Shown here: positions 8,398 through 26,800 of the stretch, in pieces
How positions within the stretch are numbered: the stretch's first letter is position 1
Layout of the letters: each line of letters starts with the position of its first letter
DNA from: Candidatus Micrarchaeota archaeon
GTDB taxonomy: Archaea; Micrarchaeota; Micrarchaeia; Anstonellales; Bilamarchaeaceae
NCBI GenBank assembly: GCA_043821365.1
Contig: JBDRCX010000002.1
Span: forward strand, 64,001-128,000
Length of the DNA stretch: 64,000 bases
Direction: 5' to 3'
Translations under genes and position numbers: made by a program
The notes under the pieces: model-generated
Database searches by the model: none
Seen by the model: the letters and a program-made list of their open reading frames with translations, nothing else
What the model was told of the DNA's origin: nothing

Positions 8398-9444
8398 CTA
8401 ACGCAAAACCAACTTTAGCTTGTTTATTGCATTTGTCATGGTCTCTTCTGGTTGGTTTAGGCATATTCTGATGAAATTATCAATGCCAAATTCACTACCT
8501 GGTGCAACAACCACACCATTCTCCAATGCCATTTCAAGGAATTTATCAGAATTCTTAATATTGGGGTGCGTTGCGAATATGTAAATTCCACCATCTGGTT
8601 TTACGAATTCAAACCCTGCTCTCTGTAAAAGTGTTTGTGTTGTTTGCGATCTTGTTTCCCATATTTGTTTGTTTCTTTCGAGTATCTCATTTTCGTTTTC
8701 TAGGCATGCAATTCCAGCTTTTTGAGCAAATGGTGGGACACATGTTATTGTTATCTGATTGAATCTTGTGATTTTTTCAACTACTTCTTTTGGTGCAATT
8801 GCATATCCTATCCTCCAGCCTTCCATATTGAATTCTTTTGAGAACGATCTCAATCGTATTGCATTTTCATATATTGGAATTTCTTTGAATGCAAGCCCTT
8901 TGTATGCCTCGTCAATAATGACAATTGCTCCGACTTTGTTTGCTTTATTTATTGTCTCTTGAATAAGAGTATTATCATATTCTGTGCTAGTTGGATTAAG
9001 TGGATTACAGATAATCAAAACATCATCCTTAGTGAGTTTTGGAATTAGGAAAGACCACATATTCTTCATTGATGTCTCTATTGTTTTGAATTCTAAACCA
9101 AGTTGTTTACAGATTAATCTATAAGCTGGCCAGTATGGTTTTGGTGTAATGACTTGTTTTTTTCCCAATACTGAAAGAAGTGCAAACAAAAGTGCCTTTG
9201 ATCCTGGTCCAACAACTACATTTTCTCTTTTGCATTTTTCCCGTTCTGCTATCTTATCTCTGAATTCATTTGTTCCAGCTGATGACACATACTGTGCTTT
9301 TGCCTTTTTCATGCTTTCAATTGCTGCGTTAGTTGCACATTCTGGGGTTGGTAAATTTGTATCTCCAATGTTTAGGCGAATGATCTTTTTCCCTGCTTTT
9401 TCCATTGCAAGAGCCTTTTCAGCAAGTTCATAGAATCCAACCAT
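8398..9444 (-). CDS. PLP-dependent aminotransferase class I/II; probable aromatic amino acid transaminase
   Basis: NPLNPTS, DEAY and SFSKEFNMEGWRIGY; last gene of the aro/phe/tyr block. Confidence 0.88.
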   Translation of the reverse strand: MVGFYELAEKALAMEKAGKKIIRLNIGDTNLPTPECATNAAIESMKKAKAQYVSSAGTNEFRDKIAEREKCKRENVVVGPGSKALLFALLSVLGKKQVITPKPYWPAYRLICKQLGLEFKTIETSMKNMWSFLIPKLTKDDVLIICNPLNPTSTEYDNTLIQETINKANKVGAIVIIDEAYKGLAFKEIPIYENAIRLRSFSKEFNMEGWRIGYAIAPKEVVEKITRFNQITITCVPPFAQKAGIACLENENEILERNKQIWETRSQTTQTLLQRAGFEFVKPDGGIYIFATHPNIKNSDKFLEMALENGVVVAPGSEFGIDNFIRICLNQPEETMTNAINKLKLVLR

Positions 9445-9448
9445 ACCA

Positions 9449-10222
9449 TCACCCTATATTCTCCCTTAATTTGTTGAAAAATTTCTTTGCTTCTTCGTAG
9501 TCTCTTGCTTTTATCACGTGTTTCAAAAATTCAAGTCTTGCTGTCACATGTTCTAGTTGCGTGAGTGAATATTTATTAAATAAAATTTCAGCAAGTAAAT
9601 TATCCTCTTCAGATAAAAGTCCTTTAGCGAGCAGTCGATGCTTTTTGAATGTTGTCCCTGGCACTGCTTTGGCATCCATACATGCAGCAAATACCATGGT
9701 TGATGCAAATGGCAATGTGAGAGAATATGCCATCATCTCATCATGCTCTTTGAAGGTATAATGGAAAATATTTATCTCCAGTTTCTTTGCAAGATCTTCA
9801 AAGAATTTTGCACCTTCTTGATCTGATTCTTTTATTATGGCCATGTTTTCATTTGAAAGTGCTTCAACATTTGCAAATGTTGGTCCGAACATTGGGTGAA
9901 CAGAAACAAATTTGTGTTTGCATCTCTGATAATATTCTAGTAATTCACCTTTAATCGATGCAACATCACAAATCATACATTTTTTGTCCAAGTGTTTCTC
10001 TATTTCTTGAAAAACTGATATTGTGTTCTCTAAACTTACTGCATTTATGAGTAAATCTGGTGCAGAAGTTTTTAATTCATCCAAACCAGCTAAGACCCTG
10101 CCAATTCCAACTCCGTCTGCTTTTTTTCTATTCCTATCATATAACAAAATCTCGTTATCTCTGGCAAGTTCTTTGGCAAGCCAACTTCCCATTTTTCCAG
10201 TACCTATAATCGCAATCTTCAT
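9449..10222 (-). CDS. tyrA: Prephenate dehydrogenase
   Basis: IIGTGKMG Rossmann motif, DVASIK, SVHPMFGP and EHDEMMA. Start set at the ATG overlapping the pheA stop. Confidence 0.9.
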   Translation of the reverse strand: MKIAIIGTGKMGSWLAKELARDNEILLYDRNRKKADGVGIGRVLAGLDELKTSAPDLLINAVSLENTISVFQEIEKHLDKKCMICDVASIKGELLEYYQRCKHKFVSVHPMFGPTFANVEALSNENMAIIKESDQEGAKFFEDLAKKLEINIFHYTFKEHDEMMAYSLTLPFASTMVFAACMDAKAVPGTTFKKHRLLAKGLLSEEDNLLAEILFNKYSLTQLEHVTARLEFLKHVIKARDYEEAKKFFNKLRENIG

Positions 10223-11274
10223 TTTCCTCCCTCTTTGTAACATCCTAAAAATTTGAACATGGCAGTTTCTTTCTTTACTTTTTCTAATGCGTCCACCACT
10301 TTTCCATCTTGGTCAGATCCTTGGAAATCAAGAAGAAATCCAAACTTTCCAGGATCTTTAACTATTGGTCTTGATTCTATCCTTGTCAAGTTGATGCCAG
10401 TATCAGAGAATATTTTTAAAACTCCAAATAATGCACCGGATTTATGTGCAGTTGAAAAAACAATCGAGCATTTATCTCCTTTTTCCTGGCTCTTTTCTCT
10501 TGATAGAACAACAAACCTAGTAAGATTTGATTCATGATCCTCTATGTTCTCTTTGAGAACCTCAAGTCCATATATATCTGCACAAAGCTTGCTTGCAATG
10601 GCAGCAGCTGCAGCTGGCCTTTCGTTGGAAATCATCATCGCAGCTCCAGCCGTATCATAGTATGGCCTTGCTTCAAGTTTATTTCTTGCAATAAATCCTC
10701 TGCACTGAGACAATGCCTGTGGGTGTGAATAAATAACTTTTATGTCTCGATGATCTGTTTCTGGTATAGTAAGCAAACAATGGTGAATTGGAACTTTTAT
10801 TTCCCCGACAATTTTTAGTCCTGTCTCAACAAGAAGGTCATTCACCTGGGTGACTGATCCGCCCAATGAATTTTCAACAGGCACTATGCCAAAGTCGAAC
10901 TGACCATTTTCTACACCGTTAAAGACTTCCCCAAATTCATTGCAAGGTATTGGTACCCATGATTTGTTCAATGCCCTAACAGCAACTTCACTATAGGCCC
11001 CATGCTCCCCTTGAAAACCAACTAACCGTGGGTCCTGTTCTTGCAGAAGTTTTGATTCTCCAAGTATTTCACTATAAACCTTTTCACTAAATTCTGGTCT
11101 TATCAATCCACGTTGCGTTTTCACTTTCTTCATTATTTCAGTTTCCCTTACTGGGTCAGGAACTTCTTGTTTCAATTTCTTTGTCCTAAGTGCAAACTCC
11201 ATCCTTTTGTTGAGCAATTTAAGTATTTCAGAATCTATCAAATCTATTCTTTTACGTAATTCATTCAATTCCAT
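10219..11274 (-). CDS. pheA: Chorismate mutase/prephenate dehydratase (P-protein) with ACT domain
   Basis: LRKRIDLIDSEILKLLNKR (AroQ), FQGEHGAYSE, VPVENS, SHPQALSQC and NLTRIESRP. Confidence 0.95.
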   Translation of the reverse strand: MELNELRKRIDLIDSEILKLLNKRMEFALRTKKLKQEVPDPVRETEIMKKVKTQRGLIRPEFSEKVYSEILGESKLLQEQDPRLVGFQGEHGAYSEVAVRALNKSWVPIPCNEFGEVFNGVENGQFDFGIVPVENSLGGSVTQVNDLLVETGLKIVGEIKVPIHHCLLTIPETDHRDIKVIYSHPQALSQCRGFIARNKLEARPYYDTAGAAMMISNERPAAAAAIASKLCADIYGLEVLKENIEDHESNLTRFVVLSREKSQEKGDKCSIVFSTAHKSGALFGVLKIFSDTGINLTRIESRPIVKDPGKFGFLLDFQGSDQDGKVVDALEKVKKETAMFKFLGCYKEGGK

Positions 11275-11275
11275 T

Positions 11276-12271
11276 CTAATCCCTCCAAATTCTTGGTATT
11301 TTTTGCTCCAAGAGCATAAGGTCAGCAAATACGATTGCAGCTACAGCTTCAACAACAACCGGAATTCGTAATGCTATACATGAATCGTGCCTTCCTTCTA
11401 CGCGTATCTCTGTATTCTTATTTGTCTTTAGATCAATAGTTTTGCCTTCTTTTCCTATGCTTGAAGTTGGTTTTACAACAACTCTAAAGACGATTTCGTT
11501 TCCATTTGTTAATCCCCCATTTATACCGCCTGCGTTGTTTGTTGTTGTTTTTCCATTTCTATCAATAATAGCATCATTACATTCGCTTCCTTTCATCTTT
11601 GCACTAGCAAAACCAGAACCAAACTCAATTCCTTTGATTGCAGGTATCGAGAAGATGATGTGGCTGATCAATGATTCAACAGAATCAAAAAATGGTTCAC
11701 CAAGTCCAATAGGAACTTCATCTATTTTACATTCAACTATTCCGCCTATTGAATCTCCCTCACTAATTGCAGTTTCTACATTCTTTTCTATATCGTTACT
11801 TCCGCCTACTTCTGTTAATTTCGCTTCAATTTTTGATGGTGCAACAAGTTTTTTTGCAACAACTCCAGCAGCAACAAGTCCAGTAGTTAAACGTCCTGAG
11901 AAATGCCCTCCTCCTCTGTAATCATTAAATCCATGGAATTTCTGAAATGCAACAAAGTCTGCGTGTCCGGGTCTTGGTGTATTCTTTATTTTTTCATAAG
12001 AAGAAGAATCCACATTTTTATTTTCGAATTCAATGACTATTGGTGCACCAGTTGTTTTCCCATTAAATACTCCACTCTTTATCTTTGGTGAATCACTTTC
12101 TTTTCTCGGTGTGGTTCCTTTTTTACCAGCTTTTCTTCTTTCCAAATCAAATTCCAATTCATTCTCCTCTAGTGGCAATCCTGCTGGGCATCCCTCAATG
12201 ACTACCCCAACTATTTGACCATGTGATTCTCCAAACATAGTTACTCTAAATAATCTTCCAAATGTGTTCAT
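11276..12271 (-). CDS. aroC: Chorismate synthase
   Basis: FGESHG, PRPGHAD, GGGHFSGRLT and GRHDSC. Confidence 0.97.
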   Translation of the reverse strand: MNTFGRLFRVTMFGESHGQIVGVVIEGCPAGLPLEENELEFDLERRKAGKKGTTPRKESDSPKIKSGVFNGKTTGAPIVIEFENKNVDSSSYEKIKNTPRPGHADFVAFQKFHGFNDYRGGGHFSGRLTTGLVAAGVVAKKLVAPSKIEAKLTEVGGSNDIEKNVETAISEGDSIGGIVECKIDEVPIGLGEPFFDSVESLISHIIFSIPAIKGIEFGSGFASAKMKGSECNDAIIDRNGKTTTNNAGGINGGLTNGNEIVFRVVVKPTSSIGKEGKTIDLKTNKNTEIRVEGRHDSCIALRIPVVVEAVAAIVFADLMLLEQKIPRIWRD

Positions 12272-13503
12272 GCTCTCAACCTCTTCAAGTCTTCAAAAAA
12301 TTTAGGGTAGGATTTTGATACGCATTCGTGGTTTTTTATTTCAACACCAGTTTCAGAGTTTAGTGCTGCTATTGCTCCTGCCATTGCGATCCTATGGTCC
12401 CCGTGGGAATCGATGATCCCACCTTTTAGCTTCCCACCTACTATTTCCATTCTATCATCAATAATCTTTATGTTGGCTCCAATTTTTGTAAACTCATCTA
12501 GAAGTGCGGTTGCTCTATTGCTTTCTTTGTGCAATAATCTGCCAACACCGCTAATAACACTTTTACCTTTACAATTGCATGCTAATGCAACAAGTGGTGG
12601 AAATAGATCTGGTGAATTTGTTGCATCAAATTCAAATGCTTGGAGTTCTGATCTTGAAACAGAAACTGAATTTTTACTTAATTTAATATTTGCCCATGTC
12701 TTCACTAAAACTGACAATATCTCTTGGTCAGGTTGATCACTATCTGTTAATTCTTCTAATCCTACTTCGCCTGCAATTGCCCCTGCAACAAGCATAAAAG
12801 CTGCCCCAGACCAATCACCTTCAATTGTTATCTCTCTGCCTTTGTAAGCTTGGTTCCCATCAACTTCAAGCATTGTCATTCCTTCATCTAATCTGACACT
12901 ACCACCAAACGAAGAAACAACTGATTTAGTCATTGTTACATATGATTTACTTTTCAAATTTACTATCTTGACTACAGAATCATTTCTACACATTGGCAAT
13001 GCAATTAACAATCCACTTACAAATTGCGAACTTACACTACCGTCTACTGTTATTTCTCCGCCTTTTATCGGTCCTTTTACTGTTATTGGTGGTTTTTTGT
13101 TGTTAGTGCTAACCTCTGCGCCCATATCCCTTAATGGTTTTTCTATCATATCAACTGGTCTGTTTAGCAAAGAACTCTTTCCAGTTATTGATATTTTTTT
13201 ATTGAAGAGAGCTGCAATTGGTGTGAACATCCTCATGCAAAACCCTGATTCATTGCAATTTAATGTATCTGATACTGGTCCATTCTCACTACCGATTATT
13301 TCAACAAAGTCATTGTTGACAACTACTCTTGCACCTAATGCTTTTACTATTTCAATTGCTGCAAGTGAATCATCACAAAAAGAAGGATTTGCTATTGTTG
13401 ATGTGCCTTTAGCTAATGCTGCTATTGCAACAGCGCGTTGCATCATGCTTTTTGATGGTGGTGCTTTTATTTTACCAGCAACACTACCAGGCGTTATCTT
13501 CAT
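12268..13503 (-). CDS. aroA: EPSP synthase
   Basis: PPSKS, NESG..MR, SSQFVSG, KESNRA and DHRIAMA. Confidence 0.97.
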   Translation of the reverse strand: MKITPGSVAGKIKAPPSKSMMQRAVAIAALAKGTSTIANPSFCDDSLAAIEIVKALGARVVVNNDFVEIIGSENGPVSDTLNCNESGFCMRMFTPIAALFNKKISITGKSSLLNRPVDMIEKPLRDMGAEVSTNNKKPPITVKGPIKGGEITVDGSVSSQFVSGLLIALPMCRNDSVVKIVNLKSKSYVTMTKSVVSSFGGSVRLDEGMTMLEVDGNQAYKGREITIEGDWSGAAFMLVAGAIAGEVGLEELTDSDQPDQEILSVLVKTWANIKLSKNSVSVSRSELQAFEFDATNSPDLFPPLVALACNCKGKSVISGVGRLLHKESNRATALLDEFTKIGANIKIIDDRMEIVGGKLKGGIIDSHGDHRIAMAGAIAALNSETGVEIKNHECVSKSYPKFFEDLKRLRA

Positions 13504-14767
13504 TTAGAATCCTCTCGGTTATTTGTTTTGGTATTCTGCCATCAGTTATTATTATGGCATCAGCTGTTTTTGCGTAAAGTGCCTTTCTTTTTTCAAGTAT
13601 CTGCTTTATTACTTCGCTGCGTTCATCAACATTAAGCAATGGTCTTTCCTTTCCCTGAACTCGTTTTTCTATTGTCTCAGGTGTTGCCCACAACCAAAAA
13701 ACAACTGCATTCTGTTTGATTATTTCTATGTTTTCTTGGTTCAGTACAACGCCGCCTCCACATGCAACTATTTTGTCTTTTATGTTGGCTAATTTTCTGA
13801 TCTGTGCTATTTCCATCTCTCTGAACTTGTCTTCTCCGTACTCCTGAAATATTGCACTTATCTTTTGTTCGTGCTGTGTTTCTATCTCATGATCACTATC
13901 AAAGATTCCTTTTCCTGTTCTCTCTGCCAATTCTATTGCGTTGGCTGTTTTTCCACTTCCCATCATTCCTACAAGTGCAATGTTAGTTGGTTTTGTTGTC
14001 TTCTGATCAATTACTGTTCTTATCATTTCAAAAGGTACTTTCCTCCCTGTGAATAATTCGAATACTTTTACTCCATGGTGGGCAAGCCATTCCTTTCCAT
14101 CTATTGTTTTACAGCCAACCTCTTTTCCATCTTTAATTAGTTGTGTTTCTTTCGCATAATTGGCATCAATAATTATCATTTCTTTTTTCAAAAGTTCTTT
14201 TGGTACAACTCTTTCATATGTGCTCAATGCAGAAATTAGAATGCAATTAGGTTCTAATTGTTTTTCTAATTCAGAAAGAGGAGAATATTCACATCCAAAT
14301 ATGTTTGCAATTTCCTTTGCTTTTTCAACAGTTCTGTTTACAACTGTGACTTTCATTCCTAAAGAAACAACTGCTGCAATGGCTGCTTTTGCAGCACCCC
14401 CTGCACCAAGCACAACTATCCTCTTATTATCAGTATCTTCTGCAGATAAAATTCCCACAACTCCGTCCACGTCTGTATTCATTCCAATTGTCTTTTCATT
14501 ATCAAACAATATTGTGTTCACCGCACCAAGTTTTTTTGCAACTGGATCAAGTTCGACTATTTTGGCCATTTCCTCTTTGAAAGGAGTTGTTATATTCAGT
14601 GCTTTGATTCCAATGGCCTTTGCAGTTTCAAGAGCTTCTTCAGCATTTTCTGCAGCTAAGCGTGTATAAACTGCATCAACTCCAAGTTCCTGAAACACAG
14701 AGTTCATCATCTGCGGGCTTCTACTATGTAATATTGGTTTTCCAACAACAGCAAAAATATCAGTCAT
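13484..14767 (-). CDS. aroE: Shikimate dehydrogenase-shikimate kinase fusion (AroE-AroK)
   Basis: N-terminal HSRSP, NITTPFK, AVNT, NTDVDG and LGAGGAA. C-terminal P-loop GMMGSGKT, FREME, CGGGVV and RPLL. Start set at the ATG overlapping the aroD stop. Confidence 0.92.
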   Translation of the reverse strand: MTDIFAVVGKPILHSRSPQMMNSVFQELGVDAVYTRLAAENAEEALETAKAIGIKALNITTPFKEEMAKIVELDPVAKKLGAVNTILFDNEKTIGMNTDVDGVVGILSAEDTDNKRIVVLGAGGAAKAAIAAVVSLGMKVTVVNRTVEKAKEIANIFGCEYSPLSELEKQLEPNCILISALSTYERVVPKELLKKEMIIIDANYAKETQLIKDGKEVGCKTIDGKEWLAHHGVKVFELFTGRKVPFEMIRTVIDQKTTKPTNIALVGMMGSGKTANAIELAERTGKGIFDSDHEIETQHEQKISAIFQEYGEDKFREMEIAQIRKLANIKDKIVACGGGVVLNQENIEIIKQNAVVFWLWATPETIEKRVQGKERPLLNVDERSEVIKQILEKRKALYAKTADAIIITDGRIPKQITERILNEDNAW

Positions 14768-15402
14768 TCTATCCCTAATTTCCCAAGAATCTCTTGGATT
14801 TCTGATTTTGTCATCTGCCCTTCTGCAGTTTCTTTTCCTTTTTCCAAACATGCAAATGTAAATGGGCTTCCTAAAATCGGTGCAACTATTCTTGTTATTT
14901 TTCCTTTCCCTCCCATCCCTATGACTATTATTTTTTTCTCACTATCTATCAACCCCAAAAGCCTTGCATTGTCTCTATTGGTATTCACCAAACAAGCTAT
15001 TTTTGCAATGTCTGCACCTGATTGAAAGCACCAATTCACTATTTGAGATAGTTCTGCTTCTGAAGGTGTTTTTTTGTAGTCATGGTAGGAAACTATAACT
15101 TTGCAATTTTTTGCCTTTGCCATATTTATGATTTCTTTTTTGTATTCATCACTAGCATCAACTTCAATATCAACAAAAGAAGCCCCGAAATTTATTGCGT
15201 TCAATAATATCCTCTTTCTTTCAGCGTCAGTGAGATTTTCAGGTCTGCATGTTGCAATTAGTTTTATTTTTTGTGAAAAAATCTCCTTTATGGTCTGACT
15301 GTCATTTGGAGTCTTGTCTAGTCTTATTTCTGCTAATTCAAGACCTTGGAGCACATTTATGCATTTTTCCAAATCAGGTTCAGCAATACTAACACAAATC
15401 AT
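14764..15402 (-). CDS. aroD: 3-dehydroquinate dehydratase type I
   Basis: EIRLD, IATCRP, VSYHDY, DIAKIA and GMG..G...R. Confidence 0.93.
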   Translation of the reverse strand: MICVSIAEPDLEKCINVLQGLELAEIRLDKTPNDSQTIKEIFSQKIKLIATCRPENLTDAERKRILLNAINFGASFVDIEVDASDEYKKEIINMAKAKNCKVIVSYHDYKKTPSEAELSQIVNWCFQSGADIAKIACLVNTNRDNARLLGLIDSEKKIIVIGMGGKGKITRIVAPILGSPFTFACLEKGKETAEGQMTKSEIQEILGKLGIE

Positions 15403-16414
15403 TCACAACACCTTCCAATTCTTCGATGCTGATCTCATCTATTTTACATCTACCTATCCCCTGAAGTAATGCCATCCTTATCTTATTACCGAATTTTTTC
15501 TTGTCTTTTTTGATGGCATCAATGAGTTTTTCTTTATTATCAGTTTTTGTTGGTAACCTGTATTGTCTAATCAAATTTTCTATTCTTTCTGCATCTTTTT
15601 TCTCTAATAATCCTTTTTGTAAAGATAAATTTGTTGCTGCTACCATGCCAATTGCTACTGCTTCGCCGTGCGGTATCTTTGTTGTTTTTTCAATTGCATG
15701 CCCAATGGTATGGCCAAAATTTAGTTTCATCCGTTCTCCTTTTTCTAATTCATCTTTTTTTACAATACTTAGTTTGACATTGATAGAATCATGGACTATT
15801 TTTTCTATTGTTGTTCTGTGGAGAGAAAGTGCCTTCTCATTATTTGTTTCCAAATATGAGAACAATGAAGAATCACCAATTGCTGCTTGTTTGATGACTT
15901 CTGCAAAACCACATCGCAATTCAATCAATGGCAATGTCTTCAGAACGTCGAAATCACATATGCAAAAATTTGGTTGGTTGATCACACCAACTAGGTTTTT
16001 GTAACCCTCGAGGTTCACTCCATTTTTTCCTCCAATACTGGCATCAACTTGCGCAAGAAGGGTTGTTGGAACAAAACCAAATTGTATTCCCCTCAAATAT
16101 GTTGATGCAACAAAACCAGTAACATCACAAACAATGCCCCCCCCAACACCAACTAATAATGAAGATCTGTCAATCTCACTGTCAAGTAATTTTTTGTAGA
16201 CTTTTTTTACTGTTTCAAGTGTTTTGTTTTCTTCACCTGGATTAATCTCAATAACCTCAAACCCATCCAACTTATCTGCATGAAATCTCCTGACATTGCT
16301 ATCTGTTATAATGGTGGTTTTTCTTTCTTCACAGTGGCTTCTGAGGTTTTCTATCGAATCCCCAAGTATTATCTGGCATTTTCCTCTCATACCATCAAGT
16401 TCAATTACTCTCAT
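15389..16414 (-). CDS. aroB: 3-dehydroquinate synthase
   Basis: [36 protein letters not shown] and HGEAVAIGM. Confidence 0.96.
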
Positions 16415-17223
16415 TTAAGCTCCCCCATCTTTTCTTTAAGCTGCCTAACCTTCTTAGCCATATCTGTAAATTGGGGCGGTGTCAATGCCTGGTCCTTATC
16501 ACTCAATGCTTCTGGAGGGTTTCTGTGTACCTCTACTATTATTCCATCTGCACCACATGCAACTGATGCCAGACTCATTGGTTCTATCAGACTGATCCTT
16601 CCTGTTCCATGAGTTGGATCAGTAATTACTGGGAGGTGAGTTAATTCTTTTACTGCCGGTACTGAGCTTAGATCAAGCGTGTTTCTTGTGTAAGTTTCGA
16701 ATGTTCTTATTCCACGTTCACATAGAATGACATCTGGATTTCCATCATTGAGTATGTACTCAGCACAGTTCAACCATTCCTCAATAGTAGAGTACATTCC
16801 TCTTTTGAGCAGGATTGGTTTGTTTGCTCGGCCAACTTCCTTTAACAAAGAGAAATTCTGCATATTTCTTGCTCCAATCTGTAGAACATCTGCGTATTCA
16901 CAAACCCAGGAAACATCTCGTGTGTCAATGACTTCAGTTACAATTGGCAAGCCAGTTTCATCCCTTGCTTTTTCAAGTATTTTCAATCCCTTGAGACCAA
17001 GACCCTGGAAAGCATAAGGTGAAGTTCTTGGTTTGAATGCCCCTCCTCGGAGCATATCTGCTCCTGCTTCTTTCACTGCTCTTGCAGTTTCAAGTGTTTG
17101 TTCTTCACTTTCAACACTACACGGGCCTGCAATTATTGTAAATCCCTGTCCAACCTTTACATTTCCAATGCGGACAACTGTTCTTCCGCTTCCATTTAAT
17201 CCAGCTAATTTTATATTTTTCAT
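16411..17223 (-). CDS. aroF: DAHP synthase, type I-beta, catalytic domain only
   Basis: [35 protein letters not shown] and DPTHGTG. Start chosen from the GAGGT SD 8 nt upstream. Confidence 0.94.
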
Positions 17224-17240
17224 AATCATATACCTCATTC

Positions 17241-17352
17241 AATCAAAATCAACTCGCCAACGTCGAGTTCATCAAATAAAAATCAATACCTCTAATCATC
17301 ATAAGCATCAGGAAAACCCCATTAATATAATTTGTTTAGTGGTTCTCCTGAT
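17241..17352 (-). promoter_or_regulatory. Candidate attenuator region: hairpins and U-tracts between the leader ORF and aroF
   Basis: RNA AUCAGGAGAACC pairs with GGUUUUCCUGAU (17341-17352/17307-17318); U-tract at 17274-17286; hairpin AACUCG/CGAGUU (17251-17269) followed by a second U-rich tract. Confidence 0.5.
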
Positions 17353-17413
17353 ATCGATAGCTAAAGCTGAAATAATAGAAGAAGTTTTTCCAATTGTTTT
17401 CAGCTATCGTCAT
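17336..17413 (-). CDS. Putative aromatic amino acid leader peptide MTIAENNWKNFFYYFSFSYRYQENH
   Basis: Hand-translated 25-codon ORF in the trpA-aroF gap; 9 aromatic residues (1 W, 4 F, 4 Y) within residues 8-21. Confidence 0.7.
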   Translation of the reverse strand: MTIAENNWKNFFYYFSFSYRYQENH

Positions 17414-17468
17414 GTGAACCATCAATTTTATATGTTCATTAAATTTCTGATATCTTTTATTTATATAG

Positions 17469-18269
17469 CTATGTATCATCTTTCTCCCTCAGAACTTTTG
17501 TTATTTTCTTAGTGAATTCTGCAATTTCATCACATGCTTTATCTACGTCATCTAGATGATTTGAATAAATATCTACTAATTTACTGCCAATAATTATACC
17601 ATCTGCATCTGAATTTGAAAATATTCTGGCTTGTTTTTCATCTGATATTCCAAATCCTGCAACTATTGGTGTTTTTGTGATTTTTTTTGCCTGCTTTATT
17701 AGTTCAATTGCTTCTGATGATACTGTGTCTCGCATTCCAGTGGTTCCAAGAACTGATACTGCATATAAAAAACCAGCAGACTTTTCAGCAATTTTTTTCA
17801 TGCGATTTTCTGGTGTGTTTGGCGTAATGAAATATATCAAGGCAATTCCATTTTTTTTACATAAATTATCTAGTTCTTCTGACTCATCAATAGTAATATC
17901 AGGCACTATAAGTCCATCTGCCCCTGCTTCTTTTATTTCATTTACGAAGTTTTCAATTCCGTTTGAGTAAACTATGTTGTAATAGGTCATTACCATAATT
18001 GGTACATTGATTTTCATTTCACGTAATTTTGAAATAATATCAAGTGCTTTTTTCGGTGTCATTCCATTAGTTAGTGCTCTGTTTGATGCAGTTTGTATGA
18101 GTTTTCCGTCAGCAATTGGATCAGAAAAAGGAATGCCAAGTTCTATTGCTCCTGCTCCGTTTGCAACGAGTGTTTGAATAATTCTTATTGTGAACTCTTC
18201 TGATGGATCACCGCAGCATACATAAGGCATGAACACAGTTTCATTTTGGAATAAATTATCTAACGTCAT
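17469..18269 (-). CDS. trpA: Tryptophan synthase alpha chain
   Basis: [31 protein letters not shown] and GFGIS. Confidence 0.97.
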
Positions 18270-19429
18270 AATATCCCCTCTAACCTTCTAACATAATCAA
18301 CATCTTTGTCTCCTCTTCCTGAAAGATTTACAATAATTACTTTGTCCTGTTCAAGATTTTTTGCTATTTTAACTGCATGCGCTATCGCATGTGCACTTTC
18401 AAGAGCAGGTATGATTCCTTCTGTTGATGATAACATATGGAATGCATCTAGTGCTTCATCATCATTTGCAGTTACGTATTCTACCTTGTCCATTTCATCA
18501 AGCATCGCATGTTCTGGTCCAACAGCAGGATAATCTAAACCAGCTGAAACAGAATGCGTTTCTTTTACTTGGCCTGCATCATCTTGGAGCAAGTAAGTCA
18601 ACATACCATGTAAGACTCCCCTCTTCCCATCACCACAGAGTCTTGCTGCATGTTTTTTTCCATCTCCGCCTGCTTCAACCCCGATCATCCTAATATTATC
18701 ATTAAGAAACGGGTGAAACAATCCAATTGCATTGCTTCCTCCACCCACACATGCAATCAAGCAATCTGGTAATTTGTTTTCATAATCTATTATCTGTTTT
18801 TTTGCTTCTTTTCCAATTACTGATTGAAAATCACGTACCATTGTTGGATAAGGATGTGGGCCAAGAGCTGACCCTATAAGGTAATGAGTTGTTCCAAAAT
18901 TAGCAGTATAATCACGCATTGCATCGTTTATTGCATCCTTGAGTGTCTTAGAACCGGTTTCAACTATTCTTAATTTAGCACCAAGCAGTTTCATCCGATA
19001 AACATTGGGTGTCTGACGTTCTGCATCTGTTTTACCCATATAAATATCACATTCCATACCAAGAAGGGCAGCAACAGTTGCAGTTGCAACTCCATGTTGG
19101 CCTGCTCCAGTTTCTGCAATTATTCTTTTTTTCCCCATTTTTTTTGCTAACAATGCCTGCCCCAATGCATTGTTTATTTTATGTGCGCCCGTGTGAAGTA
19201 AATCTTCTCTCTTAAGGTAGATTTTTGCTCCACCAACTTCTCCAGTCAATCTCTCTGCAAAATAAAGTGGTGTTTCTCTTCCTGCGTATGTTTTTAGGTA
19301 ATTATCCAGCATGTTTTGGAATTCTTTGTCCATTTTTATTTCTCCATATGCATGCTCAAGTTCTGTTAATGCTGGAACTAATGTTTCTGGTATAAACTGT
19401 CCGCCATATTTCCCAAAGTATCTATCCAT
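18266..19429 (-). CDS. trpB: Tryptophan synthase beta chain (TrpB1 type)
   Basis: [39 protein letters not shown] and NLSGRGDKD. Confidence 0.98.
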
Positions 19430-20195
19430 TTTTTGCACCTTCCTTAAGCTCTTTTATTTTCTCTTCAATGTTATCTGATTTCCAGATAGCAGTTCCAACT
19501 AAAACTCCGCTTGCACCTGATGATCTAACAAATGCAACATCATTTGCATTTCTAATTCCACTTTCGCTTATCACTGGTCTATCTACGTTTCCAATATCAT
19601 CAAGGATTTTCTTTGTTCTTCCAATGTCTATTTTCAAAGTATCAAGATCTCGATTATTTATTCCTAAAATGTCTGCTTTGGTTTTCATTGCAGTTCTCAT
19701 TTCATCTTCGTCATAACTTTCAAGAAGTACTTCAAGTTCGTTTTCATGTGCTATTTCTATAAGTTCATCAAGGTCAAGTTCGAGTTTTTTAGCAACTTTT
19801 ACAATAAGCAGTATTGCATCTGCTCCAACATTTCTTGCTGCTTCGATTTGTTTTCGTTCAATTATGAAATCTTTGAATAATACAGGCAATCCTGCCTTTT
19901 TCGCCAAAGGTACGTCTCCTATATTTCCCTTGAATATTGTTGGTTCAACAACCACTGAAATTGCATCTGCCCCACTATTGACAAAACTCATGGCAGAACC
20001 TTCAACATCCATTTCATCAAAAGAATACTCTCCTGCAGGTGAAGCATGCTTTATTTCTGTTATTATGATGAATTTTTCAGATCTGATTCTTTGTATTAAT
20101 GAGCATCTGGGACCAACAACTCGTGATCGGACATTATAGTACCCAGTGGATATATTTTCCTTTGCGTGTTCTATAAATTTATCAAGCAAGTTCAT
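19422..20195 (-). CDS. trpC: Indole-3-glycerol-phosphate synthase (no TrpF domain fused)
   Basis: EIKHASP, LFKDFI, GINNRDL, ISESGI and LVGTA. Confidence 0.95.
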
Positions 20196-21186
20196 TTTCT
20201 TCACCATCAAATTTCATTAGTTCATTCAATTTTTCCATTGCCTTTCCAGAATCAATGGAATCAGTTGCCTTTGTTATTCCATCTTCAAAACTACCCATAC
20301 CACTAACATAGATGGCTGCAGCAGCATTCAGAACTGCAATATCCCTTGCAGGGCTTGTTTTTCCTTTAAGTATCTCTAGTATTGTTTCTGCACTTTTTTC
20401 TTTGGAGTCGACTATCAGCATCTCTGTTTTCTTAAAACCAAATTCGTTTGCATCAATTATGTATTCTTCAATACTTCCATCGTTTATTTCTGCCACATTT
20501 GTTTTTTCTAATCCTATTTCGTCTGTTCCATCAGAATGCACTACCATTGCTTTTTTTGTGCCTAATTCTACTAGTGCCTCTGCCATTGTTTTGATGAGAG
20601 TTCTATCAAAAACACCAAGTACTTGTGCATGTGCGCTTGCAGGGTTTGTTAGTGGTCCGAGTATGTTGAAAACCGTTCTAACTCCAAGTTCTTTTCTTAC
20701 TGGTGCAACATATTTCATTGCAGGGTGGAAGTATGGTGCAAACATAAATCCAATTCCAATTTTTTCTATGCATTTTTCTACTTTCTTAGGTTCAAGCATT
20801 TTTACCCCAAGTTTTTCAAGTACATCTGCTGAACCACATTTACTTGAAACTGAACGATTGCCATGCTTTGCAATTTTTATTCCTGCTCCAGCTGCTATCA
20901 GAGCTGCAGTTGTTGATATGTTGAATGTATTTGACGAATCTCCCCCAGTTCCGCATGTGTCAACTAAATTCCCAACATTTGGTTTGATCCTAATTGCATT
21001 TTTTCTCATTACACTTGCGAATGCTGCTATTTCTGTTTTTGTTTCTCCCTTCATTTTCAATGATGTAAGGAGAGCAGCTATTCTTGTCTGGCTTTCTGAT
21101 CCTGACATAATTCTTGTCATAATTGATTCTGCTTCTTCACATGTAAGATCCTGCTTTTCCATGAGTTTCTGGAGTATATTTGTCAT
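20182..21186 (-). CDS. trpD: Anthranilate phosphoribosyltransferase
   Basis: DTCGTGGD, NISTT, KHGNRSVSSKCGSAD and RTVFNILGPLTNP. Confidence 0.97.
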   Translation of the reverse strand: MTNILQKLMEKQDLTCEEAESIMTRIMSGSESQTRIAALLTSLKMKGETKTEIAAFASVMRKNAIRIKPNVGNLVDTCGTGGDSSNTFNISTTAALIAAGAGIKIAKHGNRSVSSKCGSADVLEKLGVKMLEPKKVEKCIEKIGIGFMFAPYFHPAMKYVAPVRKELGVRTVFNILGPLTNPASAHAQVLGVFDRTLIKTMAEALVELGTKKAMVVHSDGTDEIGLEKTNVAEINDGSIEEYIIDANEFGFKKTEMLIVDSKEKSAETILEILKGKTSPARDIAVLNAAAAIYVSGMGSFEDGITKATDSIDSGKAMEKLNELMKFDGEENELA

Positions 21187-21755
21187 ACTGCCAACTCCAA
21201 GAAATTTTTCAGAATTTTCTCCCCATTCTCTGTCATTATACTTTCTGGATGGAATTGCACACCATAAATAGGAAGGCTCTTGTGTCTGATCGCCATAATC
21301 ATGTTGTCATCGTTGCTTTTTGCAATCACTTCTATACAATCTGGAATTTTTGTTCCTACAAGAGAATGATACCGCATCACACGCATTGGACTTTTCAATC
21401 CGTTGAAAATTCCATTTTCACTATGGCTTATGTTGCTTGTTTTTCCATGCATTGGTTTTGTTGCTTTTCCAACAACTCCACCAAAATAATGGATAATCCC
21501 CTGGTGACCAAGACACACCCCAAGTATCTTTGTTTTGTTCATTTGTGGAATTATGTCTGCACACACTCCGAAATCTCGTTTATTAGCAGGATGGCCTGGG
21601 CCTGGAGATAGGATTATTGCATCTGGCCTCAGTTTTTTTATTGCATCAATGGTAATCTGATCATTGCGAATTACTCTCACATCTTTGTCCAATTTGCTTA
21701 GGTACTGGAAAAGATTGTAAACAAATGAATCATAATTATCTATTATCAAAATCAA
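21183..21755 (-). CDS. trpG: Anthranilate synthase component II (glutamine amidotransferase)
   Basis: IDNYDSF, SPGPGHP, GVCLGHQ and QFHPES. Confidence 0.96.
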   Translation of the reverse strand: MILIIDNYDSFVYNLFQYLSKLDKDVRVIRNDQITIDAIKKLRPDAIILSPGPGHPANKRDFGVCADIIPQMNKTKILGVCLGHQGIIHYFGGVVGKATKPMHGKTSNISHSENGIFNGLKSPMRVMRYHSLVGTKIPDCIEVIAKSNDDNMIMAIRHKSLPIYGVQFHPESIMTENGEKILKNFLELAV

Positions 21756-23164
21756 AATCTCACCTCCAGTGCTTGCATAAGTGAGCGCATTTTGTTTTCA
21801 GTTTCATGGTATTCCTTTTCAGGAATTGAATCATACACTATTCCGGCTCCAGCCTGGACATATGCGTTTTGTCGTTGTGCTATCAATGTCCTTATGGTAA
21901 TTGCAAAATCACAATTTCTATTAAATGAAAAATATCCAACAGCCCCACCATAAGCACCTCTTCTATTTTTTTCAAGTTCTTCAATTATTTCCATTGCACG
22001 GACTTTTGGTGCTCCACTCAATGTTCCTGCAGGAAAAATTCCATCAAAAACATCAAAACAGTCTTTTTTATCAGCCAATTCACCACAGACATGGGAACTT
22101 AAATGCTGGACATGACGATACTTATGAACTTCCATAAGTTCTGGAACTGATACTGAACCAGGAGCAGAAACCTTTCCAAGATCATTTCTTGTAAGATCAA
22201 CAAGCATAAGATGTTCTGCCCTTTCTTTTTCATCATTGATAAGTTTTTGTTCAAATATTTTGTCTTCTTCTATTGTTTTTCCCCTTGGCATTGTACCAGC
22301 CAAAGTTGCATAGCTGTCAATTTTCTTTCCTTCAACTCTTACTAAATTTTCTGGACTGGATCCAATTATTTTTCTATCCCCAAAATTAAGGCAGTACATA
22401 TATGGAGAAGGATTTGTTTGTTTTAGATAATTATAAAACCTAAGCAAATTCCCTTCATATGGCAAGGTGTATCTTCTTGATAAGACAACTTGGAATATAT
22501 CGCCTTCAACTATTCTTTCTTTTGCAGTTTCAACTGCCTTTTCAAATTCATCCTTTTCCATATTTGATTTTGGATTACCAGCTTCAAATGGCCCTGAAAA
22601 AACATCTTCTTTTGAAAGCGAAAGAATCTCTGCTGATCTATCATCTCCATGACTCAGGTAGTGCACTGTTCTATCTCTCTGATCATAAATAATACAATCA
22701 TCAAAAATACCAAATTCAAAATCAGGGAATTTCAAATCATCTTTTGTTTTTTCCGGAAGCTTCTCTATGTTTCTGATATAGTCATAGGCAAAATATCCAA
22801 CAGCTCCACCAGCGAAACCTTCTTTTTCTATGTTTATTTTCGGAATGTTATCTGCAAGTGTTCGTATTGGTTTTTGCGAATCAATTTCTTCGTCACCAAC
22901 AGTTACAACTTTTTCTTTTGCAGTTATCATCTTTTTTGGATTAAAACCAATAAAAGAAAATCTTGCAAGCTTTTCCTTTTCACTGGATTGACTATCTGTG
23001 GCATTTGAAGAAGCTTGCATCTCCTTTGTATCAATAGACTCAAGCAGAAATGTTTCTCTGTACTGTCTGTTTATCAGCAAATATAGCTGGTATGGGTTGA
23101 GAGTAATTTTTAGTTTTTTATATATCAATTTACACACCTTTTTGTTTGACTCAAACTTACTCAT
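21752..23164 (-). CDS. trpE: Anthranilate synthase component I
   Basis: [35 protein letters not shown] and [14 protein letters not shown]. Confidence 0.96.
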
Positions 23165-23280: not shown

Positions 23281-23296
23281 TGTACAAAAATATACA
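23281..23296. promoter_or_regulatory. Tandem TRP boxes TGTACA-N4-TATACA (TrpY operator)
   Basis: One perfect and one single-mismatch copy of the TGTACA consensus known for Methanothermobacter TrpY, between the trpE promoter and the trpY start. Confidence 0.75.
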
Positions 23297-23298
23297 TT

Positions 23299-23802
23299 AT
23301 GTATCCTATTCTAGAAGATGCGTTTTTACGCTATCCAATGCGCAAAAAGGTGGCCGAGCTTTTGCTAAAATATGGCCTTAGAGTGGACAAAAAAGCTGTA
23401 ATTTACTGTGGTGAAATAGAACTCAGTCCAGCAAAAATTGCAAGATCACTTAGGGTTGATCGTAGGGTTGTCATCGAAACAGCACAAATGATCGCAGAAG
23501 TAGAAGAACTGTCAAACATTTTTGAGGATTTAATTCCAAAAGCATTTATTAGTGGAGTAGCAAAACATCTTGGATTTGAAGTTCTTGAAATAGAATCAAA
23601 ACCTCATGCTGTTGGTATTGTAAGTGCAGTTACCAGGATAATCGCAGATGCCCGAATAAGTATCCGACAAGTAGTAACTGACGATCCTGACATTTATCCA
23701 AATCCAAAATTAACAATAATTCTTGAGAAAAAACTTTCTGGTTCAGCATTGATAAAATTAAGAGAACTAAAATACATAAAGAAAATATCTCTGGAGTCAT
23801 GA
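23299..23802 (+). CDS. trpY: TrpY-family tryptophan-responsive regulator (HTH + ACT)
   Basis: YP.R.KVA...GLRVD..IYCG..E...IAR...VDRR and ISIRQ...DP...P.LTII; divergent from trpE. Confidence 0.85.
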   Translation: MYPILEDAFLRYPMRKKVAELLLKYGLRVDKKAVIYCGEIELSPAKIARSLRVDRRVVIETAQMIAEVEELSNIFEDLIPKAFISGVAKHLGFEVLEIESKPHAVGIVSAVTRIIADARISIRQVVTDDPDIYPNPKLTIILEKKLSGSALIKLRELKYIKKISLES

Positions 23803-26800
23803 TTTTTTTCGTTTTTTTCTGGTTGTTTTTGAGGATTCGATTTTTGGTTTTTTCAATAGGAATACTGCGGCTCCTAGTGCCGCACCAACTACCCCAACCA
23901 CGGCAACGGCGCCAATTATAGTCAGACTAGCATCCAAGTCATTCTTTTCTATTGGTTCTTCTTTTTTACAGTCAATACAGCTTTCATTTTTCTTTATTGT
24001 GATATTTGTTGTTGTATTTGTTTCTGGCAGTTGCACCTCGATAGTCAAGCAACTGTTATTGCTACATATTTGATTGGTGCCACATTCATTGTCCCAACAA
24101 CAGTCATAATAATTCCATCTATGATTTGCTGCATATCCGCAGATGCCAGTTACTTCCTTACATTCACCACCAAGACATGCTTTGCTGTCTGAACATTCAG
24201 AATCAATTGTACATTCTGGTTTGGTTACATTTGTTTGGTGGATTATAGTTACATTTTTGTCAGTTGTGGCAGCTCCTCCACTACCTCCTCCGCCACCTCC
24301 TCCCCCCCCTCCACTACCTCCGGAGGTAATTATAAGATCCCATTCTTGGCTTAGGTCAGAATTACCAGCAAGATCTGTACAGATTACATACCAAGTGTGG
24401 TCACCTAATGATAATACAGATGAAGTTAACTGAGTGTTTGTATCGTTGTCAACAGTTGTATCTGTTGCTTCAAGGTCATCATCAACATATAAAGAACAAT
24501 TTGCTGTTGGTGATGTTGTATCAGTATACCTGAAAGTGAAGGTTGGTGTGGTGTCAGTTGTTGATGAACCATCGGATGGCGAGATTAATATTGTCGTTGG
24601 ATTATTTGTGTCCACAGTGAAATTCCTTACTTCACTATAACCAATATTGTATCCGTCACTGCAATTAACACTCCAGTTGTGCCTGCCATCATCCAAAAGA
24701 CCAATACTATGTGGTCCAGTAGTACTTCCGTTTGTTAAGACAAATATTCCTGACCCCACTTCGTCAACATATAATGAGCATGTCAATGAGAGTGCTTTGT
24801 CATCCGTAACATTCCATCGGAATGATACATTAGAATCGTTTGTATTGTAGTCTTCTATTGGTTGTATCAGACTAACATTAGGCTGCGTTAGGTCGACAAA
24901 TGTTATCCACATAGGACTACTCCATGCCATCTGTCCATTATTCTGTGTTGCCTGAATGAAGATATAATCCTCTTCTCCTGGCCTCAAAGTTTGTATGAAG
25001 CTTCCTGATGTATTTGCTGTATTGACAATGGTATGATTCACTATAACTCCGTTGTAGAATAAACTTACGTTGGCAATGAGCAAGCCATCACTTGCATTGA
25101 TTGTGTAATCAATTGTTATATTTGGAGATAATGATGCGAATATATCTCCCATTATGTAGACTGCCGAACCATTATCTGCAGTAACTTGCATGATTGTTTT
25201 ATTCTCTGCTGCCCATGTATGTCTCTTTAATACAGTTTCCAAAACTCCAAGGCGTGTCCAATTTGGTGGATTGGCAAGTCCAATGAAACAATCAGCTGAA
25301 AAAGGCGATGAATGATCATCGCTGCTACAACTAAATCCAAGATGATGTCCATTGTCCAGTGCATATTTAACCCAACCAGTACCTTCGGGGTGGCCTCCAC
25401 TTGGATCATGAGGGTTTGTATAGTTTGTACAACCCGAGCCATCAGAACAGTTCCAATAATAATTCCAATGCCATTCACCCTTATTTTGCATGTCAACTAA
25501 TGGTATCCAGCTATCATTAGTCTTTGTTGGGTCACTGAAATCAGTTTGGCTTCCTGCATTCCTTGCAGGATGGTTATGCTCACCAAAACCTTGATTATTA
25601 GAAAGCCACTCTGCAAGTTCTGCAACTGTATTAAAATCTGGATTTGCAGCACTCATCACAGTTGTGTTCGGGTTGGCAGTTATGTAATAAATATGATTAC
25701 TTGTAGAAGTCCATTCTGCTCCAAAAAAGTATGTAAAATTTCCATCAATGTTGTCTGCATTTGTTCTGCTAATAATATCAGTCCATTCTGTCTGATCCAA
25801 ACTTGTATCGTGATCATTCCAGCCAGCACAGTCATAATTCATTTTGAGTGTGCTTGTAAATTCGTCTTGTTCAAAATCTCCATCACTATATGTTGTGTGC
25901 ATGCTATGGAATCCACACCAAACCGGTGAGCTGTCCTGTATAATTATTGTTCTTGAAGACGAACTATTCGTGTTCCCTCTACTGTCATTTACATAAACAC
26001 TATAGTTTATCACGCCGTTTGATTGATCTGTCACATTAACATAACAATTTGTGTCTGTTCTTGTCATTGAAATATTAGTTATGCTTCCGTTATTCCATAC
26101 GACCCAACATGAGTCTGGATTTGGTTCTGTAAATGTTACGTTTATGTAAATCCAGCTTCTGTTTGTTATTGAAGTATTCTCAAGAGTAGGTGCTACAAAT
26201 TGAATGTTTGATGGTGGGTATACGTCTGGACAGTTTATTGGATAGTTTTCATATCTCATCACTCTGCCAGAATCTTCAGCTATGAATAATGTTGTTTCTG
26301 TGTTTGGACAAGCAGGTAAAAAGGTTATCCCCTCCTGGTTAAGGCCTGGTGCTGGGTACTCTGTAATGTATGTATTATTGCTTGTAATCTCTCTTATGAA
26401 ATTGTCAGTATCATATAACACATACAATGTTTCTGTTTCAGTGCTGAAGAACAAATCTGAGATGTCAGTTCTACCTGGTACTGGTATAAAAGAATCAATC
26501 AATGTTGCAGTACTCAAGCCAAAATCTACATCCACTACGTATATTACTCCGTTTTCTTGTACGCCAAAGTAGAATAATCCACCTGCCGAAGAGTTGGAGT
26601 ATGGGTGATCTCCATTTGGAACGTAAGCTATACCCTCAATTCCAGAATTTGGGTTGCCTGTTGCCGGAATAATTCCAGTTAGACTGATCTGTGCAGATAC
26701 CACTCCTTGTGATGCATTGAACCTAATTATTTCAAATGGATATTCTACAGCAACATAAACATAATCCAAATTTTGGTTTGCTACTGAAACTCCTTCGAAA

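Follow-up and report, generated by a model that had tools for sequence, protein, structure and literature searches.

Ribosome-mediated attenuation is a textbook result of transcription being coupled to translation in bacteria, and control by a leader can also depend on a factor, as in tnaC of E. coli, which involves Rho. DAHP synthase catalyzes the entry step that the three aromatic amino acids share. The trpY mRNA of M. thermautotrophicus contains a two-codon Met-Trp minigene that affects its translation, the nearest archaeal precedent for the leader described here. Bacterial leader-peptide attenuators, such as trpL, pheL, and pheM of E. coli, have been summarized previously (PMC4046766, PMC8576121), and the leader peptide of Corynebacterium glutamicum aroF contains the residues Phe-Tyr-Phe (PMC4046766). 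The archaeal control by aromatic amino acids that has been described for trp and aro operons acts through TrpY in M. thermautotrophicus and through Tar (TK0271) in T. kodakarensis (PMC6737238). A review of archaeal coupling does not mention attenuation (PMC8116511), and functional evidence for coupling in archaea has been called scarce (PMC13681488). No archaeal leader-peptide attenuator was found in the literature, with subscription papers largely outside the coverage.

The window, a 64,000-nucleotide stretch of a Candidatus Micrarchaeota genome, contains a real, conserved aromatic leader that, judged from comparison with its relatives, is almost certainly translated and belongs to a covarying RNA switch. 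The element resembles trpL, pheL, and pheM in that a short ORF rich in end-product codons heads the operon, the position of the ribosome would select the helix, and the stop codon is located on the switching segment. It differs from them in its archaeal host and in its strong hairpin, which seems to be the ON structure. Furthermore, no intrinsic terminator hairpin with a U-tract was found among the relatives as a conserved part of the element, and the element has no match among the Rfam leader, T-box, and riboswitch families (best E 0.25, far under the gathering scores). Because the sensing side is like that of trpL and pheL but such a conserved terminator is lacking, the element is not classified as a member of the classical attenuators.

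The closest functional match is the aroF leader of C. glutamicum, which, together with bacterial leaders of the same aroF group, shares with the archaeal element the mixed aromatic codons in front of a DAHP synthase. However, the bacterial aroF-group loci examined mostly have classical terminators formed by a hairpin and a U-run, which the archaeal element lacks, and the archaeal element, unlike bacterial aroF leaders, also heads aspartokinase/aroA'/aroB' operons. The covariance model of the archaeal element, R1, has no match at E up to 1 in the bacterial aroF-group loci searched. Bacterial loci from Ignavibacteria, Chlorobi, Syntrophorhabdaceae, Desulfobacteraceae, and Spirochaetes (L058, L065, L068, L072, L074, L084, L089, L094, L096, L104, and L109) have F/Y/W leaders upstream of aroF, most of them followed by hairpin-plus-U terminators; these loci are probable unannotated aromatic attenuators.

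The host genome has a size of 1.2 Mb and a GC content of 36%. The genes trpE-G-D-C-B-A on the minus strand of the window are followed by a 245-nt gap and by aroF, aroB, aroD, aroE-K, aroA, aroC, pheA, tyrA, and an aminotransferase gene (Table 1). The assignments of aroE-K, pheA, tyrA, and the aminotransferase are based on Pfam; aroB, aroD, aroA, and aroC are named from sequence motifs. The product of aroF has no N-terminal regulatory domain (profile NF006421 was matched from position 79 of 338). It may therefore lack feedback inhibition, in which case the control of expression would matter more. In most of the 46 relatives, a TATA-like motif begins approximately 45–57 nt upstream of the leader start, and the leader thus probably opens its own transcript. 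We infer a transcription start near position 17440 of the window.

Table 1 Features of the aromatic leader and its surroundings in the window.
Feature	Position	Strand	Basis or comment
trpA, which ends the upstream trpEGDCBA operon	17469..18269	-	ORF list; close homologue in L144 matches Pfam Trp_syntA
TATA box, probable operon promoter	17460..17467	-	Sequence; 54 nt before leader start, just past trpA stop
Segment 0, weak Shine-Dalgarno (SD)-like motif, can pair with segment 3 (helix P0)	17416..17421	-	GUGGUU in most relatives
Leader ORF, 25 codons	17336..17413	-	Residues 8-21 hold the aromatic control codons; the stop lies at the 3' end of segment 3
Segment 1, codons 2-5, 5' arm of helix P1	17398..17411	-	Cognate pairing, covariation, folding of the window
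Segment 2, core encoding FSFSY, 3' arm of P1	17355..17371	-	May instead form a 3-bp mini-hairpin
Segment 3, 5' arm of helix P3	17339..17352	-	Covered by ribosome at leader stop (model)
P3 loop	17321..17338	-	67% pyrimidine across the family, with a U4 tract in 31/41; U-richness only moderate in host genome
Segment 4, 3' arm of P3, conserved U-run 17316-17313	17307..17320	-	Candidate termination/FttA cleavage signal when unpaired (putative role)
Segment 5, conserved primary-sequence motif beginning YAGWG	17282..17294	-	Candidate polymerase pause or protein site
Hairpin with U-rich tail, genome-specific, outside conserved element	17251..17269	-	Folding z −3.6
aroF, type I-beta DAHP synthase, operon gene 1	16411..17223	-	Probable start 17223; SD 17236-17232
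Operon remainder: aroB, aroD, aroE-aroK fusion, aroA, aroC, pheA, tyrA, class I/II aminotransferase	8398..16414	-	Basis given in the text

TrpY and Tar are DNA-binding proteins acting at initiation, unlike the leader, and a TrpY-like gene adjoins trpE in the window. This gene of a TrpY-family regulator (23299–23802, plus strand) is divergent from trpE and matches NF053754 with 166.7 bits, below the cut-off of 180. A TGTACA palindrome (23281–23286) and the motif TGTATA (23291–23296) are positioned just before its probable start. A motif similar to TGTACA, the TRP box targeted by TrpY, occurs no more than 80 nt from the leader start in 5 of the 46 relatives; the host genome has none there. The trp operon may be controlled by a repressor, while the aro operon may be controlled by its leader. 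The trp cluster (17469–23164) comprises trpE, G, D, C, B, and A, with no trpF among the listed ORFs of the window. A 2191-residue ORF beside the trpY-like gene (23797–30372, minus strand) looks secreted or surface-anchored.

The original prediction described a 25-codon ORF with nine aromatics among residues 8–21 inside the trpA–aroF gap, and the sequence agrees with this description. The aromatic density of the ORF, nine in 14 codons, is the highest among the short ORFs of 415 upstream intergenic regions of the same genome, and dinucleotide shuffles of the gap contain an equally aromatic ORF in 3 of 20,000 cases. These comparisons with other intergenic and shuffled DNA answer the original caveat that the aromatic codons might reflect AT-richness. 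In the host genome, no further leader specific for an amino acid was conspicuous, and the leader peptide has no entry in the protein collection searched. The motif of segment 0, compared with the 16S end and the SD profile of the genome, is positioned 3–5 nt before the leader start.

The relatives of the aroF of the window are mostly from Micrarchaeota metagenome-assembled genomes, including Bilamarchaeum and Anstonellaceae records, and the host very probably belongs to the order Anstonellales. Matches to aroF were identified in 55 of 176 genomes of this order (56 matches). The expected conservation of a short F/Y/W-rich ORF upstream of related aroF genes was borne out: an aromatic leader precedes 49 of the 56 matches, and the seven without a leader include one aroF abutting trpA directly and one second copy. 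The 46 curated leaders are 20–40 codons long, contain no internal stops, and consist of 33% Phe, Tyr, and Trp, compared with 9% in the proteome; Phe is present in all 46, Tyr in 45, and Trp in 35. In 30 of 31 cases, the start after the SD-like motif shares the reading frame of the core, an anchor set at the nucleotide level. The sole exception is a spurious SD motif at a locus that also has an in-frame start. The distances from start to core are 42, 45, 48, 51, 54, 57, and 90 nt, seven length classes that are all multiples of three, and we estimate the chance of six independent frame-neutral changes at about 1 in 700. Upstream of the core, the codons and residues vary, with the aromatic residues retained. 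The related genomes are non-independent samples, and the helix tests presented below are uncorrected for relatedness. The preserved frame, the seven length classes, and the absence of internal stops indicate that the ORF is under selection for translation, and translation of the leader is, on this comparative evidence, close to certain.

Some loci deviate from the common organization. The leaders of L009, L020, and L078 contain in-frame insertions of more than 10 codons within or after the aromatic core; the insertions of L009 and L020 are related to each other and look self-complementary. In L055, approximately 370 nt, with inserted repeated palindromic units, separate segment 5 from aroF. 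The leaders of L026, L027, L024, and L120, which precede divergent DAHP synthases (48–57% identity), have longer terminal aromatic runs and weak or no R1 matches.

Model R1 has one full-length match per genome in 35 of 151 genomes of the order and one match in another order of the class. The four previously unseen matches all precede aromatic genes: two are located before aspartokinase-asd-aroA' (one with aroB' in view), one before aroF, and one before a lone aroA. The same leader in metagenome locus L136/L144 follows trpA and precedes the genes for aspartokinase, asd, a DeoC-family aldolase, and DHQ synthase II, a set that we take to be the archaeal alternative entry route. Since the leader also heads these non-homologous operons, the element follows the pathway and not the aroF gene. 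The pattern scan of metagenomes was too loose, with 19 of its 22 matches due to chance and three true. The aroF tree is unresolved at its deep nodes, and therefore no donor or direction is claimed. The aspartokinase-led operon of L144 (15011–19224) contains aroD-aroE-aroK and aroA-aroC fusions. The leader before the lone aroA (L148:4078–4260, G036) is frameshifted, and aroF was not found in that genome with the query used; either the leader has apparently decayed together with the pathway, or the assembly is in error. Thermoplasmata aroF loci (L064, L079, L099, L103, and L108) have short frames ending in FSY/YSY-like codons approximately 240–330 nt before aroF. They share similar flanking sequence, have no R1 match, and represent a possible second archaeal leader family.

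The trpA–aroF region folds better than its shuffles (z −3.8). Helices 1:2 (P1) and 3:4 (P3) of the original prediction are stable in the window, with −22.8 kcal/mol for P1 with its 5' extension P0 (z −3.9 against shuffles) and −18.8 kcal/mol for P3 (z −5.6), and they covary in the relatives. When each segment of 41 leaders was paired with its own partner or with that of another genome, cognate partners were preferred for P1 (codons 2–9 with the core, z −8.0), P3 (z −10.4), and P0 (z −4.0), compared with z from +0.8 to −2.1 for control pairs. Five leaders with mis-set landmarks (L019, L040, L042, L054, and L078) are included in this test and omitted from the 36-leader folding, the 4:5, U-tract, and footprint-spacing counts, and the segment 4 tests. 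In a sequence-only alignment, two-sided changes occur at 11 pairs of P1 and P3 (53 cells), which exceeds 500 of 500 shuffles in both cells and score, and also all slid registers. P0 is 77% paired, and its covariation is not significant. RNAalifold applied to a MAFFT alignment returned solely the invariant mini-hairpin of segment 2, and so no covariation there, because the registers of the helices shift among the leaders.

The core is constrained at the nucleotide level. It has AGC in 39 of 39 leaders, even though AGC makes up 10% of Ser codons genome-wide, and the exchange of Ser for Gly tracks the pairing: all four UUC-GGC core variants have the matching CGAA change in segment 1. P1 and P3 are not mutually exclusive, and both form in naked RNA. 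By contrast, P0 excludes P3; no terminator helix was found. Comparison of the genomes thus demonstrates, at the level of sequence, a promoter-proximal and frame-conserved F/Y/W leader with helices P1 and P3 and a stop codon at or in segment 3.

The RNA expected outside the polymerase at segment 5 was folded for 36 leaders with a mask for the ribosome that extends 9, 12, or 15 nt beyond the A-site. P3 of at least 6 bp forms in 27–34 of the 36 leaders when the modelled A-site is positioned up to core+6 and in none when the ribosome is at the stop. The modelled unpaired fraction of the U-run is 0.08–0.16 with the ribosome on the codons and approximately 0.6 with the ribosome at the stop; in the host genome, it changes from 0 to 0.98. 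Of the 382 aromatic codons, 271 are located no further along than core+6 and 316 no further than core+12; a stall on the remaining approximately 17% would not protect P3. Before segment 4 is made, an untranslated leader forms P0 and P1 in 33 of 36 cases, and the naked full-length RNA relaxes to P1 and P3, with P3 in 29 of 36 at equilibrium. Conservation, frame, covariation, and constrained folding all support the earlier idea that a stalled ribosome would allow 3:4 to form and that a ribosome at the stop would mask segment 3.

We somewhat favor the interpretation of the element as a ribosome-read, attenuator-like switch of the aromatic pathway that operates without a terminator hairpin. The leader very likely senses aromatic amino acids, and it appears to do so by tRNA charging rather than by peptide arrest. 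When any aromatic aminoacyl-tRNA is scarce, the ribosome would stall upstream of segment 3, and P3 would form and hide the U-run of segment 4, so that the operon is transcribed. As the structure of the starvation state, P3 should be ON for a biosynthetic operon, an assignment that we consider probable. Under ample supply, the ribosome would arrive at the stop and cover segment 3, and the U-rich loop and segment 4 would emerge unpaired. They would then constitute a hairpin-less archaeal terminator, most likely acting via FttA/aCPSF1 with the polymerase at YAGWG. This unpaired loop with segment 4 is the putative conserved OFF feature and predicts an RNA end near 17315. In the absence of translation, P0 and P1 may sequester segment 3 while segment 4 has yet to be made, which would also be OFF. 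Because the naked RNA also forms P3, the OFF state requires that the ribosome dwell at the stop or that P0 act as a kinetic trap, and timing matters. Premature termination is the output that we lean towards in this model, and FttA is tentatively suggested as the specific termination factor.

Terminators of archaea are rich in U and have no hairpin, and two U4 tracts are preferred by aCPSF1 (PMC8716108). The exposed loop and segment 4 contain a U4 tract in 41 of 41 leaders and at least two in about two thirds of them. FttA is encoded in the host genome by a 637-residue frame with a KH_TffA match over the cut-off. The footprint of FttA, as predicted by its structure, includes U at −23 and U-rich sequence at −30 to −36 (PMC11616081), and this pattern peaks with the RNA end on the AG of YAGWG in 22 of 36 leaders; the spacing match is post hoc and suggestive only, with the motif sought in a 13-nt interval downstream of the U-run. 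The footprint is weak in the host genome, in which the loop has three U at −30 to −36 and there is one U4 tract. It has been hypothesized that a ribosome close behind the polymerase may itself exclude FttA (PMC11616081). The element would resemble tnaC/Rho control and FttA/aCPSF1 termination (PMC8716108, PMC11616081) in having a ribosome that gates an unstructured, pyrimidine-rich factor signal. It would differ from tnaC/Rho in its apparent sensing by tRNA charging, not peptide arrest, and in having a nuclease as the factor. Neither PMC8716108 nor PMC11616081 describes a leader in which FttA is used in a regulated way. It is plausible that a hairpin set by the ribosome hides or exposes the FttA/aCPSF1 cleavage site, with a conserved pause motif for the polymerase at the reach of the nuclease, which would amount to regulated premature termination by a nuclease, coupled to tRNA charging and independent of a terminator hairpin.

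The region downstream of P3 bears on where transcription might end. YAGWG and the ten bases that follow it are conserved in sequence and are located 20–23 nt after the U-run of segment 4 in 29 of 36 leaders; no pairing partner, covarying or otherwise, was found for segment 5. The apparent covariation of a 2:5 pairing in the three closest genomes did not generalize, and neither this pairing nor those of the 5'UTR with segment 5 and of segment 4 with the aroF binding site show a cognate preference. By eye, a K-loop-like sequence of the box C'/D' kind that the window contains is not conserved, nor is a his-type pause consensus in segment 5. The original prediction placed the terminator here, with a 4:5 hairpin as the OFF structure and RNA ends in the U-tract at 17274–17286. 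The host genome does contain the 5-bp pairing and the U-tract, and the CUG/YAG positions are partly conserved among the relatives. However, the pairing does not surpass shuffles in stability within the window (z +0.24), and across relatives it is no better than shuffles or chimeras (cognate z +0.7), and segment 5 is followed by U4 in only 6 of 36 relatives and by an A-tract in 25 of 36. With neither the pairing nor the U-tract conserved, a terminator at this site is quite improbable. The final hairpin (17269–17251), also part of the original prediction, is real in the host genome, but it is absent from the two closest relatives and is therefore not a feature of the element.

The wiring could also be the inverse of that proposed, with P3 as an OFF hairpin for pausing or termination and P0 as an antiterminator that forms once the stalled ribosome leaves the SD motif. 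P3 ends approximately 12 nt before the YAG motif, a distance like that of his-type pause hairpins, naked RNA folds to P3, and P0 is conserved and competes with P3. Nevertheless, P3 prevails over P0 in 27–34 of the 36 leaders with a modelled stalled ribosome, a ribosome at the stop blocks P3, no U-tract follows P3, and the covariation of P0 is weak, which makes the inverse wiring unlikely. An output at the level of translation, in which unpaired segment 4 would occlude the ribosome-binding site of the first gene, is suggested by the distance of 70–110 nt from the leader stop to that gene at many loci and by the weak pairing of the pyrimidine-rich segment 4 with purine-rich binding sites (approximately −7 kcal/mol). 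This pairing has no significant cognate preference (z −1.7), the distance reaches 183, 248, 289, and 462 nt, and the element serves different first genes, so that we consider translational output quite unlikely. A nascent aromatic peptide that, as in TnaC, holds the ribosome at the stop together with the free amino acid and so prolongs the OFF state would solve the problem of dwell time and would agree with the conserved FSFSY core. Arrest motifs have a fixed spacing to the stall site, whereas here the core and the stop are between 15 and 66 nt apart, and the constraint on the core is that of nucleotides; such an arrest is quite improbable. The least probable alternative, given only a slim chance, is an untranslated structured RNA or a protein-binding leader, the U-rich sequence of which merely reads as aromatic codons. 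It would account for the fixed core codons and for the sequence motif of segment 5, but not for frame-preserving length changes that extend to the insertions in L009 and L020, 46 leaders free of stops, and aromatic residues kept amid variable codons.

The proposed ribosome-read switch matters for several aspects of archaeal biology. The element of approximately 150 nt, with dozens of natural variants and mapped helices, is a compact reporter for the regulatory use of coupling in archaea, and it could show whether a ribosome can gate FttA/aCPSF1. It would represent fine metabolic control in a DPANN lineage with reduced genomes, and a control module that has been retained across a swap of the entry enzymes of the pathway.
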